From a virus, in the IMG/VR virus record IMGVR_UViG_3300020220_003756, positions 1 to 64,000 of that record: DNA of 64,000 nucleotides. One strand, given 5' to 3'. The notes beneath the pieces were generated by a model. That model worked only from the letters and a program-made list of their open reading frames with translations, made no database searches and was not told the DNA's origin. Below, one piece after another: positions 15,232 through 48,007 of the stretch (positions within the stretch are counted from its first letter, which is position 1; every line of letters begins with the position of its first letter). The position numbers and the translations under genes are program-made.

Positions 15232-15885
15232 TTAAAATTTTGCATGATCACTCTGTCTTTCTTGGTAGTGATCACAGATGTCTGTGAACATGCATTGATC
15301 GCATTTGGGTGATCTGGCACGGCAGATATACTTGCCGTGATCTATCAACCATTCATGAGCACCCCAGCGATACTGATCAGGGGTATCCTGCTCTAATGTT
15401 TCTGCGGTCTTGTGTTCTGCTTTTGTATTTGCTATGCCCAGTCTGTTGCTGATACGATGCACATGGGTGTCCACGGCGATAGCAGGTTCATTGAACACAA
15501 AACGCATCATGATGTCTGTGCTTTTGCGACCCACGCCTGCCAACTGCATCAACTGCTTTCTATCATTGGGCACTGTGCCGGCATGACGATCCAACAGTTG
15601 CTGACTCATCAACTTCAGATTCTTGGCCTTGTTGTTGTACATACCAGCAGGCCGTATTAATTGTTTTAATTTGTCTATGTCCAGGGATAGGATTTCTTCC
15701 GGAGTTTCAGCATGAGCGAATAAGTTAGCGCAGGCTTCAGCGGTGCGTTCATCTTTAGTCTGGGCACTCAGTGTCACACCCACCAGACTCTTGAACGCAT
15801 TGTTGTAGATTTTTTCCCGCGGCGGATTATTTGGCACAGGATTTTGTGCGTGAAATCGTTCGTAGACTGTGACTATTTTAGACAT
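15232..15885 (-). CDS. nth: endonuclease III (HhH-GPD glycosylase, 4Fe-4S)
   Basis: LSAQT, LAGVGRKS, VDTHVHR, C-x6-C-x2-C-x5-C. Confidence 0.95.
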   Translation of the reverse strand: MSKIVTVYERFHAQNPVPNNPPREKIYNNAFKSLVGVTLSAQTKDERTAEACANLFAHAETPEEILSLDIDKLKQLIRPAGMYNNKAKNLKLMSQQLLDRHAGTVPNDRKQLMQLAGVGRKSTDIMMRFVFNEPAIAVDTHVHRISNRLGIANTKAEHKTAETLEQDTPDQYRWGAHEWLIDHGKYICRARSPKCDQCMFTDICDHYQERQSDHAKF

Positions 15886-16351
15886 TGGCCGCTTGTAGTT
15901 TCTTTTTATTGGCTACTGCCCAGTTGCCTCTCAGTGCAAAATAAAGTCCACCAATCCATAGGCTGAAGTGCAAGTAGTCAGAGAGAATAAAAGCCCATAG
16001 ACTTTCAGGCTTGAGCACTACCCAGATCACTCCGGTCATCACGCAACACATGACCAGGCCGCAGAATCTAGTGAGTGCATCTCCCAGTTCGGCAACATAG
16101 GGCAAGTCCCGAATCTTAGCCACAGTGGCTAATCCTCCCGCCAGTAGACCAACACCGGCTAGTATTTCACCAAAGACCACGAACCACCATACCAAGGCCG
16201 GCAGACCAAATGCTGCTCCACCCGCAGGATCAAATGGCATCTTGGCCAAGCCCTGTGTGATAAACACCACGGCCAAAGGTATTCGCAACAGCAGGTTGCT
16301 CCAGTCAAAGTCTGGCAATGTGTGCCAATAATTTTTTAGAACCAGTTTCAT
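15878..16351 (-). CDS. DoxX-family membrane protein
   Basis: LLRIPLAVVFITQGLAK...GE; start revised to MKLVL (AAGGA SD). Confidence 0.8.
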   Translation of the reverse strand: MKLVLKNYWHTLPDFDWSNLLLRIPLAVVFITQGLAKMPFDPAGGAAFGLPALVWWFVVFGEILAGVGLLAGGLATVAKIRDLPYVAELGDALTRFCGLVMCCVMTGVIWVVLKPESLWAFILSDYLHFSLWIGGLYFALRGNWAVANKKKLQAANV

Positions 16352-16364
16352 AATATGTTTCCTT

Positions 16365-16889
16365 TCAAATGCGACGGCAAATAGAGACCGCACCGCGCGA
16401 TCCCAGGTCAATCAACTTTACCCATAATTTCAATGCAGGGTTGATGGATCTAACACGCGACCCAGCATCATGCTTGTGATGCACTTCGTCGGCCTGGCAT
16501 TTTTTAAGTACGACTACCAGATCGTTGTGTTCGGGATAGGAAGATAACTGATCAATCTGTTGTTGATAATGATGGTCCACAAAAGTTTCCACAGCTTGTA
16601 TGGTAGCATACACTGTATTGCGTCCAAATAGAGCTGGCACAGCACCAGTGAGCCAACCTGCTATTCGCCAAGGAATCTGCAGACGACTTTGCTGTGACAC
16701 ATGTACCAGGGACTCCATCATTCTTAAATGCTGTCGTTCCACAGCTCCATGTGCATCAGCAAACTCCAACAATTCGGGGTCTTCCCGCCACAGGGCCACT
16801 GCTTTTATACCCCGATAGATTTCTACCGCTCCAACTTCACCTGCATGATCAGAGCGTAATTCCTGATTGATGTAGTTACTGATTGACAC
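16365..16889 (-). CDS. coq7: demethoxyubiquinone hydroxylase (Coq7/Clk-1 di-iron family)
   Basis: LRSDHAGExGA..IY, ExxH, VETFVDHHY, DExHH. Confidence 0.9.
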   Translation of the reverse strand: MSISNYINQELRSDHAGEVGAVEIYRGIKAVALWREDPELLEFADAHGAVERQHLRMMESLVHVSQQSRLQIPWRIAGWLTGAVPALFGRNTVYATIQAVETFVDHHYQQQIDQLSSYPEHNDLVVVLKKCQADEVHHKHDAGSRVRSINPALKLWVKLIDLGSRGAVSICRRI

Positions 16890-17617: not shown

Positions 17618-17980
17618 TTAGATACTCGCTGCCTTCTCGGCTCGTTCTTCATCACTCATCTCAGAATCTCTCTGGGCACGATCCGATTGTCGCAGTTGAT
17701 CATATTTTGGTCGATCGGGATACTGTTTCTGCACAGTCTTGATCACCAACCAAGTTATGAACGCCATGCTGACGATGGCCATGTGTCCAAACACATTGTA
17801 TCCCAGATACCACATCTCGCCCGCATATAATGAAAACGCCAGGGCCCAAAAACAGGCCAGCATGATGCTGGCGATGTATTTGATCTGCATGGGAGCATTT
17901 CTCATACCATTGAAGTTGGGATCCAGCAATTGATAGAAAGTCCTAAACAGTAATCGCAAAAATTTGTATAGTCCGTACAT
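17618..17980 (-). CDS. two-TM membrane protein, copy A
   Basis: near-identical to 45794..46156. Confidence 0.85.
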   Translation of the reverse strand: MYGLYKFLRLLFRTFYQLLDPNFNGMRNAPMQIKYIASIMLACFWALAFSLYAGEMWYLGYNVFGHMAIVSMAFITWLVIKTVQKQYPDRPKYDQLRQSDRAQRDSEMSDEERAEKAASI

Positions 17981-17990
17981 GATTATCCTC

Positions 17991-18125
17991 TCATTGACAC
18001 ACAGAATCGTAATACTTGCAGAAGAAAAAATGCCATGCGAGATGTTGGTCCCTCACAGACCATAGGCCTGCTGTGATCAGGGCAACGATGCCACATATTG
18101 CGGCGAATATTATGTAAACCTTCAT
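17991..18125 (-). CDS. 44 aa membrane peptide, copy A (not in ORF track)
   Basis: MKVYIIFAAICGIVALITAGLWSVRDQHLAWHFFFCKYYDSVCQ; conserved paralog at 46167..46301; GAGGAG SD. Confidence 0.8.
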   Translation of the reverse strand: MKVYIIFAAICGIVALITAGLWSVRDQHLAWHFFFCKYYDSVCQ

Positions 18126-19180
18126 TTTATCTCCTCTAGAGTGAACTTCTCCTTCAATATCTGACAGGCACGATTCAATGCGTGAACACGATCACTTCTG
18201 CTTTCCTTCGTGATGATTACATCAGCCGCGCAATGACAAATGTTTTTATTACAAATTATCTTTTCTTTAGGCCAGTCAAATCCTGTAACTATATTTCCTA
18301 GATGACCGCCAACTTCACAATTTGCACGTTGCACTCTTCCGTCATGTAAAACAAATAAACTTTCTAATCCTATAGAGCATTCCCATCCGAAAAAATTATT
18401 TGATTTAGTTTTTTCTAGATCCGATTGTATGTTTAAAGAAAAAAATTCTTGAGATCCATCATCATATAACACATTTGATTTTGTTTTGTTCATTCGATGA
18501 TTAGTTAATTTTTTTAGTTTCGGATCTCCGAAGACTATAGGCGTGTTTTTTAAAAAATCTAATTGTTCGTCAGTGTAAGATGCATCAAAATAATTAATTC
18601 CCGTACCAAAGTCAGGTAATATTCTTACCACTTCGATAGTAAAAGGTTCAGATGCTAACAAAGCCTTTTCATACATTCTAACGCATCTATCCCAATTTCT
18701 GGGATGCATCATTATTCTTAATGTAACATAGGATTTGTGAGATAATTTTGATAACTTATCAATAAATTCGTCCTCTTCCTCTTCTGATATTACAAATTCT
18801 GAATGATAGCTTACGCTTATAGAACAAAATTTATAAGCTATATCTTTCCAATAATCCCAAGAACGTACAAGATTTGTAGTCACATGCACAGTTCCGCCTT
18901 TATCATAAATGGTGTCAACTAAATCTTTAAAAAAAGGACTTACTGTAGGTTCTCCGCCTGAAAGACTGCAGTGGACATAAGAGAATTTTTCAAAGCACCG
19001 ATCTAAAAAAGGCTTTACATGTTTCCAATCGTAGTGATGATTTTTGCCGCCATGCACAATTTCAGGACAATAACTACAATGATAGGTACAAATATTATTT
19101 AAAAGCCAGGTAAGAAAAAGTCCAGGAGAAGTTTTTTCTATCTTTATTATTTTTTTACCGTTATAGATTATTGGATTCAT
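18122..19180 (-). CDS. radical SAM protein with SPASM/twitch-like C-terminus
   Basis: CTYHCSYC, GGEP, C-terminal Cys cluster; visibly AT-rich. Confidence 0.9.
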   Translation of the reverse strand: MNPIIYNGKKIIKIEKTSPGLFLTWLLNNICTYHCSYCPEIVHGGKNHHYDWKHVKPFLDRCFEKFSYVHCSLSGGEPTVSPFFKDLVDTIYDKGGTVHVTTNLVRSWDYWKDIAYKFCSISVSYHSEFVISEEEEDEFIDKLSKLSHKSYVTLRIMMHPRNWDRCVRMYEKALLASEPFTIEVVRILPDFGTGINYFDASYTDEQLDFLKNTPIVFGDPKLKKLTNHRMNKTKSNVLYDDGSQEFFSLNIQSDLEKTKSNNFFGWECSIGLESLFVLHDGRVQRANCEVGGHLGNIVTGFDWPKEKIICNKNICHCAADVIITKESRSDRVHALNRACQILKEKFTLEEIK

Positions 19181-19197
19181 AATTTAACCTAATATAA

Positions 19198-19222
19198 TCT
19201 AGTTCTTGAATTCGTTCGTTCA
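19198..19222 (-). repeat. 25-bp orphan copy of an MNERIQEL gene start
   Basis: TCTAGTTCTTGAATTCGTTCGTTCA identical to 45536-45560. Confidence 0.85.
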
Positions 19223-43912: not shown

Positions 43913-44028
43913 AATGGATGATAGCTCTTTTTGATTCTATAATGCTGGCTAGAGAAGCAGTCACACTGACCCGACAGAACAAGTATGAAGAAGTGAGGAA
44001 ACTGATGCTAGGCGAGAAGCGTGTTTGA
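43909..44028 (+). CDS. 39 aa hypothetical protein (not in ORF track)
   Basis: ATGA overlap; MKWMIALFDSIMLAREAVTLTRQ... Confidence 0.6.
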   Translation: MKWMIALFDSIMLAREAVTLTRQNKYEEVRKLMLGEKRV

Positions 44029-44143
44029 ACGTTATCTAGCACTTTGGGATCCTTGGGTAGAATACTATTGCAAAGTAAGATTCGGTCCGAGTTGGCGTTG
44101 GTATTACCTCAATTGGGAAAATAACAGAGAATTTTTACCATAA
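44021..44143 (+). CDS. 40 aa Trp/Tyr-rich peptide (not in ORF track)
   Basis: GTG start overlapping the previous stop. Confidence 0.4.
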   Translation: MFERYLALWDPWVEYYCKVRFGPSWRWYYLNWENNREFLP

Positions 44144-44201
44144 ATAATCTTGTTTTACGAAAATAAAGATATATAATAGTAAGACACACACGGAGATCAT
44201 A

Positions 44202-44444
44202 ATGTTCACCCCAGAGTTTTTTATAGACATCATACAGAACACCAAACGCTCTGTATCCAGACGCATCATTCAAGACGAACAACTACAACGAATAGCAGAT
44301 CGTTATCTAGATGCACAGACAGATTTCGCCAAGATGATAGTGCTCAATGCCATCGATCTGGCTAAGTATTCTTTGGATCAATGCGGTCCTAAGAAGGAGC
44401 AGGCTTCACGGGCTCCCTACAAAGTAGAAAAAGAAGCCAACTAA
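44202..44444 (+). CDS. phasin-like small helical protein
   Basis: FIDIIQNTK...YLDAQTDFAK amphipathic pattern; GGAG SD. Confidence 0.55.
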   Translation: MFTPEFFIDIIQNTKRSVSRRIIQDEQLQRIADRYLDAQTDFAKMIVLNAIDLAKYSLDQCGPKKEQASRAPYKVEKEAN

Positions 44445-44469
44445 GACATACACACACAAGGAGAAAATT

Positions 44470-44748
44470 ATGTCAAATACATTTATTGTACCAGAAGTAA
44501 AAGCACCCGAAGTCAAGTTCAACAAGAACGGCTATGAGATCCGTACAGAGATCCTCAAAGAAGCCAAAGACATCGTTGCACAAGAGTTCACCTACAAATG
44601 GCAGGGTTGGGAAATGTCAGCCCAGCGCGATGACAAAACTGGTCAGATCGTTACCACAGTAGGTATGCCTGAATTTCCAGGTCTAGACAAAGTTCTAGAA
44701 ACTGCTGAAAAGATGTATGCTTTCGTTAATCAAGGTGTCAAGAAATAA
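44470..44748 (+). CDS. conserved hypothetical phage protein
   Basis: NKNGYEIR...MPEFPG...AEKMYAFV; AAGGAG SD. Confidence 0.8.
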   Translation: MSNTFIVPEVKAPEVKFNKNGYEIRTEILKEAKDIVAQEFTYKWQGWEMSAQRDDKTGQIVTTVGMPEFPGLDKVLETAEKMYAFVNQGVKK

Positions 44749-44777
44749 TATCGTCTGCGTAGCAGAATTATAGAATA

Positions 44778-44799
44778 GAAACCTCCTTCGGGAGGTTTC
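44778..44799. terminator. hairpin between convergent genes
   Basis: GAAACCTCC-TTCG-GGAGGTTTC. Confidence 0.8.
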
Positions 44800-44802
44800 G
44801 TC

Positions 44803-45108
44803 TTATTCAGCAGTAGACTTAAAATCGTTGTAAATCTTAACGATATCTAAAGTCGACGGATCGCTGTTTTTTTCTTTAGGCAATGGTAGATTTTGCCATT
44901 CGTCTTCTGTGATATCAGTGACGATCATTAGTTTGTATGGATGGCCGTCCGACCCGTATAGTGTGATAGTTTCTAAGCCTACTGCACCATCTGCGGCCTG
45001 TTCTAGTTTCTTTGCTAAGGCTCTAAGTCCTCTGCGTTCTGCTACGATATAGCCTGTGCCGTTAGGCTCTTTGTGTGGATATAGATGTACTCTGCTCATT
45101 GTTCTCAT
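44803..45108 (-). CDS. hypothetical protein
   Basis: 101 aa; ATGA-coupled to the displaced dnaE tail. Confidence 0.7.
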   Translation of the reverse strand: MRTMSRVHLYPHKEPNGTGYIVAERRGLRALAKKLEQAADGAVGLETITLYGSDGHPYKLMIVTDITEDEWQNLPLPKEKNSDPSTLDIVKIYNDFKSTAE

Positions 45109-45166
45109 TTTACATGTCTCACTTGATCTAGATTGAATTTCTTATGTTTATATACTGTAACATATT
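45105..45166 (-). pseudogene. displaced original 3' end of the dnaE-like gene
   Basis: encodes YVTVYKHKKFNLDQVRHVK*; 45127-45166 matches 46311-46350 at 35/40 nt. Confidence 0.85.
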
Positions 45167-45178
45167 TTTATCCTTTTG

Positions 45179-45337
45179 TTAGTAACGAAACGCACTGTCA
45201 GATCTATATTCGCATTTTGCTTTGACGATCCTAGTATCTTTAGCCACCACTGCCAGATCCGCTCGGCATTGAGCCTCCAATGCGTAAGCAGCGATCCTAG
45301 ATTCGGTAGGGGCATTGAAAGCCCAGACAACATACAT
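45179..45337 (-). CDS. 52 aa hypothetical protein (not in ORF track)
   Basis: MYVVWAFNAPTESRIAAY...; TAATG-coupled to the upstream gene. Confidence 0.5.
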   Translation of the reverse strand: MYVVWAFNAPTESRIAAYALEAQCRADLAVVAKDTRIVKAKCEYRSDSAFRY

Positions 45338-45561
45338 TATCCACATTCTCCAACTCCGAAATGTTCTTTAATCAAACTTGCCGCAAGGTCTTCATCAAAA
45401 GGAAAAGGTTCACCTTTCCATTTCTGTAAAACTTCGGCACATTCCCGCACAATCAACTCAGCGAACTTATGAGTATCAAAGTGTAATTGTCCGTCTACTA
45501 GAGCACCCTCTACACGATGGCTCCAGCATTGTTTTTCTAGTTCTTGAATTCGTTCGTTCAT
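45337..45561 (-). CDS. small phage protein, MNERI...KFAELIVREC...IKEHFGV type
   Basis: recognisable repeated small-protein pattern of large phages. Confidence 0.75.
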   Translation of the reverse strand: MNERIQELEKQCWSHRVEGALVDGQLHFDTHKFAELIVRECAEVLQKWKGEPFPFDEDLAASLIKEHFGVGECG

Positions 45562-45794
45562 GCGCTACTCCAGTCATTATTGGTAGTCTTTGGTTTGTTT
45601 TCTTCTTTTACTTGATCGATAAGTTTCTGTATAGGAAGTTCATGTGCAGGTTTGGGTTGTTTTCGATGTTGTATTTTTTTGTATATCTCTACAGGCACAG
45701 TCCATATGAGTATATAAATCAATAGACCCGTGCCTACAATCGGTCCCCAGACAAACATAAAAATCCATTTGAATATGTCAATTGCTTTGTCCAT
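45558..45794 (-). CDS. small membrane protein
   Basis: 78 aa, TM helix, coupled on both sides. Confidence 0.65.
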   Translation of the reverse strand: MDKAIDIFKWIFMFVWGPIVGTGLLIYILIWTVPVEIYKKIQHRKQPKPAHELPIQKLIDQVKEENKPKTTNNDWSSA

Positions 45795-46156
45795 CAGATA
45801 TTCTTAGCCAGTTTTTGTCGCTGTTCATCACTCATCTCGAAATCTCTTTGAGCACGATCCGGTTGACGCAGTTGATCATATTTTGGCCGTTCTGGATACT
45901 GTTTCTGCACAGTCTTGATCACCAACCAAGTTATGAACGCCATGCTGACGATGGCCATGTGTCCAAACACATTGTAGCCTAGATACCACATTTCACCAGC
46001 ATACAAGGTAAATGCCAGGGCCCAAAAACATGCTAGCATGATGCTGGCGATGTATTTGATCTGCATGGGAGCATTTTTCAAACCATTGAAGTTGGGATCC
46101 AACAGTTGCCAAAAGGTCCTAAACAGTAAGCGTAAAAATTTGTATAATCCGTACAT
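45794..46156 (-). CDS. two-TM membrane protein, copy B
   Basis: paralog of 17618..17980. Confidence 0.85.
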   Translation of the reverse strand: MYGLYKFLRLLFRTFWQLLDPNFNGLKNAPMQIKYIASIMLACFWALAFTLYAGEMWYLGYNVFGHMAIVSMAFITWLVIKTVQKQYPERPKYDQLRQPDRAQRDFEMSDEQRQKLAKNI

Positions 46157-46166
46157 GATTATCCTT

Positions 46167-46301
46167 TCAGTGACATTCGGAATCGTAATACTGGCAGAAC
46201 CAAAAATGCCATGCGAGATGTTGGTCCCTCACGGACCACAGTCCTGCTATGATAAGTGCAGTGATGCCGCATATGATGGCGGCGGCTATATAACCCCTCA
46301 T
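46167..46301 (-). CDS. 44 aa membrane peptide, copy B (not in ORF track)
   Basis: MRGYIAAAIICGITALIIAGLWSVRDQHLAWHFWFCQYYDSECH. Confidence 0.8.
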   Translation of the reverse strand: MRGYIAAAIICGITALIIAGLWSVRDQHLAWHFWFCQYYDSECH

Positions 46302-47965
46302 TTAATCTCCTCTAGAGTGAACTTCTTGTGCTTGTATACTGTAACATATTCCGAATTGTTTTTGTAGCCCAATCTGCCCGATCCCCATAAGATTGGATGA
46401 TCGTGGAATGAAATGGCATGAGGAACCACTACATCTAGATAACGACCGTTGCCCGTGCCCAGTGTGACGAATGTGATGTACTCTCGAGGTTTGGATTTGA
46501 ACACGCGATAGTTAGCGACCAATCCACAGAACTCTACAGATCCTGGTTTTCTTATCTCTTGGCACACAGGTATGAATCTCTCTGATCGCCAGCGGCCAGT
46601 CTTCATGAGATCGTCTACCTCACCGCCTTCACCTATGGCAGGCACAGCGCCCGCCAGTTTGGCTTCTTGATGATAGACCCAGCGAGCATATGATCCTTGG
46701 CAGTGTTTCAGTGCTGCCTGCCAGAACCGTTCCGGATTATGTGCCTTCTGATAGGCCAAGGCCCAGATCAATCTACCTAGATTTATCGCATGGGCACGAC
46801 ATAGGCCAAAATGGCTTAACTCTCGCAGGGCGGCAAACACATCGTCCTTGCGGGGATGATTACCTACCAACTGCATGAACTCAAACATCTTTTCTTCGTT
46901 CTTCTTGGCGAATGCTCTGCGCCACATGTCTGCGGTGTATTGGTCGCAGCCTAGGATCTCCGATATTAGTTCTATGGCATCATCCTCGAACACGATAGTT
47001 TCATCGAAGTTGTCTTTGGACCAGTCCTGGAAGAACGATGCTTTCCGGCGGCCCATGGTAGCCACAGGGCGTATCAGTGCTGTGCCTAGTACACAGTCGG
47101 CACGACTCTTAGGACGGATAGCACGGAACAGTCTCTTCATCGCCGGCGACTCTGCCTGTGTAACTCCTAGAACATCTCCACGGCTCAGCAATTCGGCAGT
47201 GGCTTCATCCTCTTCTGGATAGTCTAATAAGTCACGCTGTTCTATTTCCCACAGTTGGCTCAGTCCGCGATTGGCCAGTATATCTATCTTAAAATGCTCT
47301 AGGTCTTCTATCTCATATTTGTCTAGCAGGATTTGATTATCGCCGTTGATTAGACTCTTAGGTACTGAACGATCAAATATCAGTATGCCGCCACAGTGTT
47401 TTGATATGCAGCGTTTCTTGCCTAAAAGTTTATTGGCCAGACGCTGTGCTTCCTCTACGAAACTCTTGTCAATGACGTTTTCTAGTTTGAAGTTGCGTTT
47501 CAGCGTGCCTTTGGCACCATAGCGTTTGGCTGCTTCTCTCAGTGCAGATTTTTCTTTATAGGTCACATAGTTTGACACACGAGCACTCTGTCCTGGCCAG
47601 TGTTTGAATATGCGATTCATCACTGTTTCCTGCTGCCAATGTGGGAAATCTAAGTCGATGTCGGGTAGGTCATCGCGCTTGGGATTCATGAAGCGTGATA
47701 AGGGTATATGTTCTTTAATTGGATCTACATCAGATATATCTAACAGCCAACAGATCAAACTGCTGCCTGCAGATCCTCTGGTTATGTGGGGGATATCTCT
47801 AGTGAGATTCAGTATCTCTACTACTCGTAGAAAGTGTTTGGCGAAACCCAATCGTGCTATGATTTCTAGTTCTTCTGCTAGCCTATCTGCGTATGCTTGG
47901 CCTTGGGGTACGTCTCTGACAAACTTGCCTACCAGTGTTTCTAGTTCTTTGTATCTTGCTTCCAT
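46298..47965 (-). CDS. dnaE: compact family C DNA polymerase (DnaE-like, no PHP domain)
   Basis: RGSAGSSL, DLPDIDLDF, KHCGG, KIDIL, RAHA; only 555 aa. Confidence 0.88.
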   Translation of the reverse strand: MEARYKELETLVGKFVRDVPQGQAYADRLAEELEIIARLGFAKHFLRVVEILNLTRDIPHITRGSAGSSLICWLLDISDVDPIKEHIPLSRFMNPKRDDLPDIDLDFPHWQQETVMNRIFKHWPGQSARVSNYVTYKEKSALREAAKRYGAKGTLKRNFKLENVIDKSFVEEAQRLANKLLGKKRCISKHCGGILIFDRSVPKSLINGDNQILLDKYEIEDLEHFKIDILANRGLSQLWEIEQRDLLDYPEEDEATAELLSRGDVLGVTQAESPAMKRLFRAIRPKSRADCVLGTALIRPVATMGRRKASFFQDWSKDNFDETIVFEDDAIELISEILGCDQYTADMWRRAFAKKNEEKMFEFMQLVGNHPRKDDVFAALRELSHFGLCRAHAINLGRLIWALAYQKAHNPERFWQAALKHCQGSYARWVYHQEAKLAGAVPAIGEGGEVDDLMKTGRWRSERFIPVCQEIRKPGSVEFCGLVANYRVFKSKPREYITFVTLGTGNGRYLDVVVPHAISFHDHPILWGSGRLGYKNNSEYVTVYKHKKFTLEEIK

Positions 47966-47997
47966 ATCTGCCTCTCGTTGCCTTAGGCAGATATTTA
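47964..47997 (-). promoter_or_regulatory. late promoter overlapping an SD-sequestering hairpin
   Basis: ATATCTGCCT (47964-47973) / AGGCAGATAT (47985-47994); TAAATA 47992-47997. Confidence 0.7.
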
Positions 47998-48007
47998 TTG
48001 TGAAAGA

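Follow-up and report, generated by a model that had tools for sequence, protein, structure and literature searches.

Integrative elements such as phages and islands insert at the 3' ends of tRNA, tmRNA and protein genes and supply the interrupted gene with a replacement end. Integron gene cassettes have reportedly been found in phage genomes, and Comeau et al. (2014) are said to have described modular shuffling mediated by PeSLs, promoter/stem-loop intergenic repeats, in T4-type phages. The present analysis deals with an insertion between a gene for a DnaE-like DNA polymerase (dnaE) and its downstream partner g101, located in a stretch of viral DNA of 64,000 nt (positions 1 to 64,000 of IMG/VR record IMGVR_UViG_3300020220_003756; this whole stretch is referred to below as the window). 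Here, the end of dnaE occurs twice, once at the end of the gene itself and once as an orphan behind five small open reading frames (ORFs). As far as the account of these repeats in Arbiol et al. 2010 (PMC2839356) goes, PeSLs of T4-type phages take part in modular shuffling and in the formation of mini-circles of 400-1400 bp without a dedicated recombinase. For orphan 3' ends at Rhs and type VI secretion system (T6SS) loci, homology-facilitated illegitimate recombination (HFIR), a process defined in PMC3240628, has been proposed in the part of Kirchberger et al. 2017 (PMC5361080) devoted to them. No description of a dnaE-tail duplication of the kind found in the window came up in keyword searches of open-access text.

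All genes of the dnaE-cargo-g101 region are encoded on the minus strand (Table 1). The DnaE-like gene terminates in YVTVYKHKKFTLEEIK (...EYVTVYKHKKFTLEEIK in a longer reading), and its TGA overlaps the ATG of c1, the first of five tightly coupled small ORFs (c1-c5) that fill the space between two copies of a repeat. Behind c5, in frame after a TAA, lies the orphan K-YVTVYKHKKFNLDQVRHVK, whose TGA overlaps the ATG of g101 (ATGA). The first-pass annotation had interpreted this arrangement as an insertion at the dnaE 3' end that leaves the old tail ATGA-coupled to the next gene, an interpretation borne out by the sequence and by empty sites in 52 of 58 related loci (see below). It had also described repeats identical at 35 of 40 nt, separated by 1184 bp and differing mostly at synonymous positions. 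Indeed, a repeat search returned a single 40-nt direct repeat with this identity and spacing, in which four of the five differences, counted by codon, are synonymous and the remaining one changes T to N. The exact 16-nt core of the repeat occurs twice in the 64-kb window when up to two mismatches are allowed, compared with an expected 0.02 occurrences, and two or more occurrences were seen in none of 100 shuffles. Neither the cargo ORFs nor g101 match any Pfam or PHROG family, which agrees with the earlier statement that the five cargo ORFs include no integrase.

A DnaE scan of viral contigs yielded 80 loci, among which the end of dnaE was readable in 78 and a g101 homologue was present in 58; dnaE abuts or overlaps g101 in 52 of the latter. 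Relatives with an empty site ending in the orphan tail, which had been proposed as a check on the insertion, do exist: in L001, L002, L010, and L026, dnaE ends exactly in YVTVYKHKKFNLDQVRHVK, with an ATGA overlap into g101. The g101 proteins of L001 and L026 are 98% and 99% identical to that of the window, respectively, and blastn identity to L026 (98.7%) and L001 (97.0%) sets in precisely with the first base of the right repeat (45166). Because related loci show both the dnaE-g101 contact and the exact orphan tail, the empty state is ancestral and the window carries an insertion. The remaining six of the 58 loci hold other cargo at the same place, i.e., an EndoIII-like (HhH-GPD) gene in L004, L006, and L024, a BPL_N-like gene in L009 and L016, and a 267-aa gene without a Pfam family in L012. 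Since these six loci carry unlike cargo there, the dnaE/g101 junction is a general insertion hot spot. L012 (2534-3469) represents a mirror image of the window, as a direct repeat of the g101 5' end (23 nt exact, approx. 45 nt imperfect) flanks the 267-aa gene, and the upstream copy, a frame-drifted 35-aa orphan of the g101 5' end, has kept its ATGA coupling to dnaE. L128 (530-830), which has no core, provides a third case of an insertion between diverged copies of a gene end; in this contig, the 5' part of a membrane-protein-like gene downstream of c5, a gene homologous to window 15878-16411, is present on both sides of c5, truncated (30 codons, followed by KR and a stop) on one side and in full on the other.

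The polymerase gene next to the insertion is itself a mosaic. Differences between the window and L001 amount, along the gene, to 10/500, 26/450, 56/350, and 64/317. The maximum chi-square, 127.7, falls at alignment columns 972-993 and was matched in none of 1000 permutations; at sites that discriminate L001 from L006, the window is of the L001 type before these columns and mostly of the L006 type beyond them. By blastn, the 5' 980 nt of dnaE are 96.2% identical to L001, while the best match of the 3' 688 nt among the fetched loci is only 86% (L006). Because approx. 690 nt of the dnaE 3' part is foreign, while identity to L001/L026 flanks both sides, the sequence points to a foreign patch of approx. 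1.8 kb that extends from dnaE nt ~980 through c5 within an L001/L026-like backbone. A crossover limited to the core would not result in such a pattern. The natural dnaE tail nearest to the new tail (FTLEEIK) is that of L006 (FTLEDIR) and, because the differences between the repeats are mostly synonymous, the new tail must have evolved as the coding end of dnaE in another lineage. In comparison with the resident form, the C-terminus of DnaE is shorter by three residues and has six differing positions; this alteration is probably neutral since the tails differ widely among relatives.

The joint between c5 and the repeat occurs in other contexts as well. A scan of metagenome contigs for c5 returned five contigs, and in four of them (L126, L127, L129, and L130) an identical joint between the c5 flank and the core is followed by unlike continuations; a search of viral contigs gave 20 pattern matches, none of which was a c5 relative. 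L127 carries c2, c3, a c4 remnant, and c5, joined to the core, an L006-type tail (FTLEQIR), an EndoIII-like gene (nth), and a 97% identical g101, and is thus a filled version of a second allele, of which L006 is the empty form. In L129 and L130, the core behind c5 continues into the FTLEEIK tail and then into c1, c2, and c3, with slightly different leader sequences. A junction of this kind would be expected if the unit were circular or arrayed in tandem, and other explanations exist; upstream of c5, L129 contains 4 kb of unrelated small ORFs and none of c1 to c4. A stack of scars is present in L126 (917-1020), where c4 and c5 are joined to the core and a further 8 nt of tail (24 nt of dnaE tail in all), followed by a remnant of approx. 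60 nt of a c4-family 3' end and then by the ATGA start of the next gene. Additional copies of the core are linked to c5 only, a pattern consistent with a single origin of the joint and its later spread. If L128 represents the state before the joint was made, comparison with its c5 flank suggests a microhomology of no more than about 2 nt at the original joint.

The new tail is not confined to dnaE. Positions 17642-18150 of the window are 88% identical to 45818-46326, which comprise the final 29 nt of the tail, c1, and c2; the 29-nt stretch itself (46298-46326) is found again at 18122-18150. At this second place, it encodes the last eight residues (KFTLEEIK) of a radical-SAM enzyme whose gene is ATGA-coupled to the c1 copy. 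A 95% identical radical-SAM relative (L116) ends in ITKESRNV and differs in its final 24 residues. The leader is therefore fused to two unrelated genes, dnaE and that of the radical-SAM enzyme, and in L082 the leader is missing altogether, with c1 ATGA-coupled to another gene; the length of leader moving with c1 is accordingly 51, 29, or 0 nt. It is reasonable to assume that the leader is carried along as the translation-initiation region of c1, since its GGAG box and overlapping stop/start would serve c1. The exact leader pattern had no match in viral contigs. Within the tail of the radical-SAM enzyme (18122-18193), the 16 residues preceding the eight encoded by the leader are SDRVHALNRACQILKE, perhaps the end of yet another gene.

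The make-up of the cargo is likewise inconstant. In L127, c4 is reduced to its first 24 nt, L128 has neither c3 nor c4, and the gene order elsewhere is c3, c4-like, c2 (L081), c4, c2 (L083), or c1, c2, EndoIII-like (L082); moreover, c2 homologues lie directly upstream of dnaE in L009, L013, L014, L016, L023, and L050. The cargo is thus a set of shuffling cassettes rather than one element. The dN/dS ratio is well below 1 for c1, c2, and c5 in comparison with their relatives (L129 and the second copy in the window in the case of c1), with a value of about 0.25 for c5. The c4 family (MNERI...FAELIV...HFGVEE) comprises 53 distinct full-length copies in the fetched loci (among them L101, L109, and L110), arranged in tandem arrays of up to nine in which neighbouring copies often overlap by ATGA; in the ESM Atlas, c4 falls among unnamed viral clusters only. 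Although the proteins of this family are only 32-68% identical, the first ~15 and the last ~27 nt of the genes are nearly invariant in DNA, and the termini resemble junctions at which cassettes are swapped by recombination. Between the window and L126, c5 differs at 2 of 165 nt and the adjoining c4 at 62 of 222, which places a mosaic boundary at the c4 end. The c4 start (45536-45560) also has an exact 25-nt copy at 19198-19222, immediately ahead of the radical-SAM gene; this copy is what is left of the 5' end of a c4-family gene and resembles the 24-nt c4 remnant in L127.

The insertion was probably acquired as a cassette imported by general homologous recombination between co-infecting relatives, without a dedicated integrase. 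According to this explanation, the foreign patch would consist of the last ~690 nt of the dnaE of another lineage, with its own C-terminal tail, together with the coupled c1-c5. The left crossover would have occurred in dnaE near nt 980, with dnaE providing a long homology arm, and the right crossover in the 16-nt block (EYVTVY codons), which is the last well-conserved stretch ahead of the variable tail. The latter crossover would have been possible because the donor already had an orphan dnaE-tail fragment behind c5, the scar of one older illegitimate joint between the c5 flank and the core, which could act as a short right homology arm. With such an arm, the cargo might be transferred into any dnaE allele regardless of the downstream sequence. 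The "rebuilt" gene end would then be a by-product, the tail being the translational-coupling leader of c1 (ribosome-binding site and ATGA) that moves with c1, whereas the resident tail might have been retained as an orphan because the translation-initiation region of g101 lies in it. As a consequence of the insertion, g101 would be uncoupled from the termination of dnaE translation. The out-of-frame ATG of the core opens an 11-codon frame that ends 19 nt ahead of the g101 start, and ribosomes may be handed on from this frame to g101. The gene-end fragments in L012 and L128 and the pile of remnants in L126 fit homology-facilitated illegitimate recombination, and a RecA-family gene is present in both near-complete relatives of the phage (described below). 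From patterns of this kind we infer in which order the events occurred, that homologous recombination of the phage or the host was used, and what the orphan does. The first-pass annotation had favoured an integrative element that restores its target gene. The true insertion and a functional-looking replacement tail survive from that proposal, whereas a discrete site-specific element is not supported: no tyrosine or serine recombinase was found in the record or in two near-complete relatives, approx. 690 nt of dnaE is foreign, and both the tail lengths and the cargo vary. Moreover, the "restoring" tail is simply the dnaE tail of another lineage, and the mirror-image insertions duplicate other gene ends.

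Several points weigh against cassette import by homologous recombination. No donor was found with a dnaE 3' end more than 95% identical to that of the window, and, because the donor lineage is missing, parsimony is the ground for regarding the 1.8-kb patch as a single event; the insertion could have occurred independently of the exchange that left the dnaE breakpoint, as mosaicism is common in this group. Sixteen identical bases are short for a right crossover of the RecA type. The c5 genes of the window and L126 are nearly identical (see above), yet the tails behind the core are unlike; exchange there is therefore recent and may be frequent, as at a hot or targeted site. In addition, the junction in L129 and L130 is exactly that of a circular form or tandem array of the unit, and the approx. 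2-nt microhomology of the original joint, which holds if L128 is the pre-joint state, favours neither side. Finally, it is possible that a recombinase is encoded elsewhere in this genome, as the record is only ~21% complete and about four-fifths of the genome is unseen.

Public runs bear on two of the other explanations. They were checked as assembled (Logan) contigs from 4 of the 20 matching lake-water metagenome runs, a form of data in which rare forms are invisible. A chimeric contig joined through the repeat is scarcely credible. Although unitigs break at both repeat copies in three of the four runs, the shared 16-nt core is too short to mislead assemblers, 84-96% of the sampled words of the stretch are found in each of the 20 runs, L127 independently has the same right junction, and both junctions are spanned in run X14 by contigs with no differing letter, one of which bridges g101, the orphan, c5, c4, and c3 (44300-45811), while the other joins c1, the new tail, and dnaE (46202-47300). 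In run X4, a contig follows the dnaE tail to 46308 and then switches to an allele ending in LEDIR with other downstream sequence; an allele of the L006 type is therefore present alongside the filled one in this lake run. Summed contig depth is higher in the cargo than in the flanks, a figure that sums relatives and is not used as evidence. A second explanation, which is not likely, is that the 1184-bp unit (core, FTLEEIK tail, and c1-c5) loops out between the repeats as a mini-circle without an integrase and re-enters the core of other dnaE alleles by a single Campbell-type crossover, with the coding gene end serving as the repeat. All four junction types expected of a Campbell cycle have been seen: empty sites (L001 and L026, with L006 for the second allele), the two filled junctions (the window, and L127 for the second allele), and the permuted junction of c5 to the core, tail, and c1 (L129 and L130). 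The unit also falls within the 400-1400 bp range given for PeSL mini-circles in the relevant part of PMC2839356, where no dedicated recombinase appears to be necessary either, and exchange at the core appears to be recent. However, a lone crossover at the core would leave the upstream dnaE of the recipient type, whereas approx. 690 nt of it is foreign; the repeats are exact over just 16 nt; and the unrelated ORFs upstream of c5 in L129 argue against a simple circle or tandem copy. Contigs of the four runs contain no joint that skips the 1184 bp, and no single listed piece crosses the whole insert, within the limits that contigs set on rare forms. There are back-joints within the cargo: contigs of run X1 jump backward from 46057 to 45521 and, across three extra letters, from 46150 to 45344, and these joints may represent shuffled relatives, paralogous repeats, or rearranged forms. 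In its strongest form, this explanation would make the 1184-bp unit an enzyme-less mobile cassette that uses the last conserved polymerase codons as its attachment site, cycles through circular or tandem states, and carries a portable gene end; as stated, it is improbable, and equally so is its corollary that the portable end overwrites the C-terminus of whichever gene precedes it, that of DnaE or of the radical-SAM enzyme. In a broader version, the coding coupling leaders of these jumbo phages (the dnaE tail and the c4 termini) would act as the recombination signals behind the mobility of cassettes, a coding counterpart of PeSLs and attC.

Dedicated enzymes are required by the two remaining explanations, and searches for these enzymes were negative. 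Neither the record nor those of five relatives, including the 337-kb and 320-kb genomes, had a match to a tyrosine recombinase (Phage_integrase, PF00589), and no serine recombinase (Resolvase, PF00239) was matched in the record of the window or in the two near-complete genomes. These results count against a site-specific cassette mobilised in trans by a phage or host recombinase encoded elsewhere, for which the 16-nt core would be the attachment site. Such a cassette could account for the same joint position in five contexts, for the flanking direct repeats with an exact core, and for the existence of exact empty sites. It is nonetheless very unlikely, as a repeat search reported no inverted repeats or attC-like hairpins at either junction, the left end is variable (with the three leader lengths given above), the composition of the cargo varies, the adjoining dnaE segment is foreign, and the extra cores are always linked to c5, as one historical joint would leave them and a reusable site would not. 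With regard to other signals between 44300 and 48100, promoter-like sites are not enriched (5 vs. 7.9 expected), whereas terminator-like hairpins number 8 vs. 2.9 expected from shuffles, four of them within the cargo and none at either repeat. The one-sided foreign tract of approx. 690 nt beside the insert does resemble a co-conversion tract, as would be left by homing, in which a nuclease cuts the empty dnaE/g101 junction and repair from a filled donor copies the cargo and adjacent sequence into dnaE. However, no nuclease domain was detected in c1-c5 by Pfam or PHROG comparison, in which HNH and LAGLIDADG were not searched separately, and GIY-YIG (PF01541) had no match in the record. Homing, a highly improbable explanation, would by itself also leave both the orphan tail and the occurrence of the same joint with different continuations unexplained. 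A 113-aa ORF of L129, suspected by eye to encode a GIY-YIG nuclease, was dropped as it had no Pfam match.

How, then, does import by homologous recombination relate this locus to the described systems? The closest phage precedent appears to be PeSL shuffling with mini-circles in T4-type phages. As in the system outlined in PMC2839356, small ORFan cassettes are gained, lost, and swapped among close relatives in hyperplastic regions, recombination takes place at short repeated junctions without an integrase in units of approx. 0.4-1.4 kb, and crossovers map between the ribosome-binding site/ATG and neighbouring motifs. In contrast to the promoter/stem-loop intergenic repeats that this source describes, those at this locus consist of coding sequence from the ends of genes (the dnaE tail and the c4-family termini), which double as coupling leaders, and the C-terminus of an essential gene is overwritten. 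Mini-circles are reported in that account, whereas here only assembled contigs are available and circles were not observed. The locus also shares features with displacement by HFIR at Rhs, contact-dependent inhibition (CDI), and T6SS loci, at least as the cited sections present it: a homology anchor lies in the conserved 5' part of the gene (compare the mosaic breakpoint in dnaE), a new 3' end arrives with new downstream genes while the old 3' end is kept downstream as an orphan, and serial events pile up remnants, as in L126. Unlike those loci, as far as these sources portray them, the window involves a replicative polymerase instead of a polymorphic toxin, the displaced piece is 20 codons long, and there are no immunity genes; furthermore, the orphan would be kept for the translation start of the next gene and not as a reservoir of alternative tips. 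The flanking direct repeats with an identical core, the completion of the target by a copy on the element, and the exact empty sites in relatives are reminiscent of integrative elements, which nevertheless differ in that no integrase was found here in the cargo, the record, or the near-complete relatives, that the ends and content are variable, and that 690 nt of adjacent target gene was also exchanged. Like integron cassettes, the cargo consists of promoterless small ORFs in one orientation behind a fixed point, but there are neither attC-like inverted repeats at the cassette ends nor an integron integrase (no PF00589 match).

The IMG/VR source record is a viral contig of 73.5 kb, estimated by CheckV to be 21% complete. 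Its DnaE is 82-83% identical to those of two larger relatives, one of 337 kb with terminal repeats (100% complete) and one of 320 kb (93% complete); given the sizes of these relatives, the record is a fragment of a lake-water jumbo phage of roughly 330 kb. None of 50,697 deposited phage genomes matched window positions 44000-48000 in a DNA search, and the best matches of the DnaE protein among isolate-level or deposited phage records are just 25-37% identical. DnaE has Pfam matches to DNA_pol3_alpha (2e-40) and DNA_pol3_finger (2.3e-14) and is assigned by PHROG to DNA polymerase. It covers the palm/finger part of Pol III alpha alone (PHROG profile positions 362-828 of 1190), and the PHP domain had no match anywhere in the 73.5-kb record; the phage may encode the remaining polymerase parts at another place or lack them. 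Host-like metabolic genes are dense for a phage at 16365-20920 and 48008-50642 of the window and include those for isocitrate lyase, class II aldolase, a fatty-acid desaturase, COQ7, cytochrome c, an IMPDH/GMP-reductase family protein, the radical-SAM enzyme, and a Rv2179c-like exoribonuclease.

Table 1. Features of the dnaE-cargo-g101 region and of the second cargo copy (window coordinates).
Feature	Position	Strand	Remarks
DnaE-like DNA polymerase III alpha core, 555 aa, mosaic gene	46298..47965	-	palm and fingers
Approximate recombination breakpoint in dnaE	46970..46995	-	gene nt ~972-993; from sliding identity, maximum chi-square and blastn of halves
Left copy of the 40-nt direct repeat	46311..46350	-	exact 16-nt core at 46335-46350
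New, putatively imported dnaE tail (..YKHKKFTLEEIK, stop)	46298..46334	-	contains GGAG ribosome-binding site and ATGA overlap for c1
c1, 44 aa	46167..46301	-	one hydrophobic segment; relatives in L082, L128, L129, L130
c2, 120 aa	45794..46156	-	two hydrophobic segments
c3, 78 aa	45558..45794	-	one hydrophobic segment
c4, 74 aa	45337..45561	-	member of a multi-copy viral small-protein family
c5, 55 aa	45179..45346	-	starts at conserved ATG at the c4 end; five metagenome relatives
3' flank of c5, reaching to the joint with the core	45167..45178	-	AAGGA ribosome-binding site 7 nt before the out-of-frame core ATG
Right copy of the 40-nt direct repeat	45127..45166	-	exact core at 45151-45166
Orphan resident dnaE tail (K-YVTVYKHKKFNLDQVRHVK, stop)	45105..45167	-	letter-for-letter match to the functional tails of L001 and L026
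g101, 101 aa	44803..45108	-	conserved downstream partner of dnaE; no Pfam/PHROG family
Bidirectional terminator-like hairpin	44778..44799	.	end of the dnaE-cargo-g101 unit; best-formed of those found
Second copy: 29-nt leader, c1' (17991-18125) and c2' (17618-17980)	17618..18150	-	88% identity
Radical-SAM gene, 352 aa	18122..19180	-	last 8 residues (KFTLEEIK, stop) are the leader; ATGA-coupled to the c1 copy

The locus documents with unusual clarity how small accessory genes are acquired by uncultured jumbo phages in nature, as the empty site, two filled alleles, a scar, and shuffled cassettes are all recoverable from metagenomes. It shows that an essential gene tolerates the overwriting of its 3' end, and that short coding leaders, which travel with cassettes, come to form the C-termini of unrelated proteins. 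There is also a warning for annotation, since a short orphan gene end lying between two phage genes is not a gene but a scar of recombination. The idea of PeSLs and mini-circles would extend beyond T4-type phages, and to repeats that are coding, if exchange at the core proves to be frequent or to proceed via circles.

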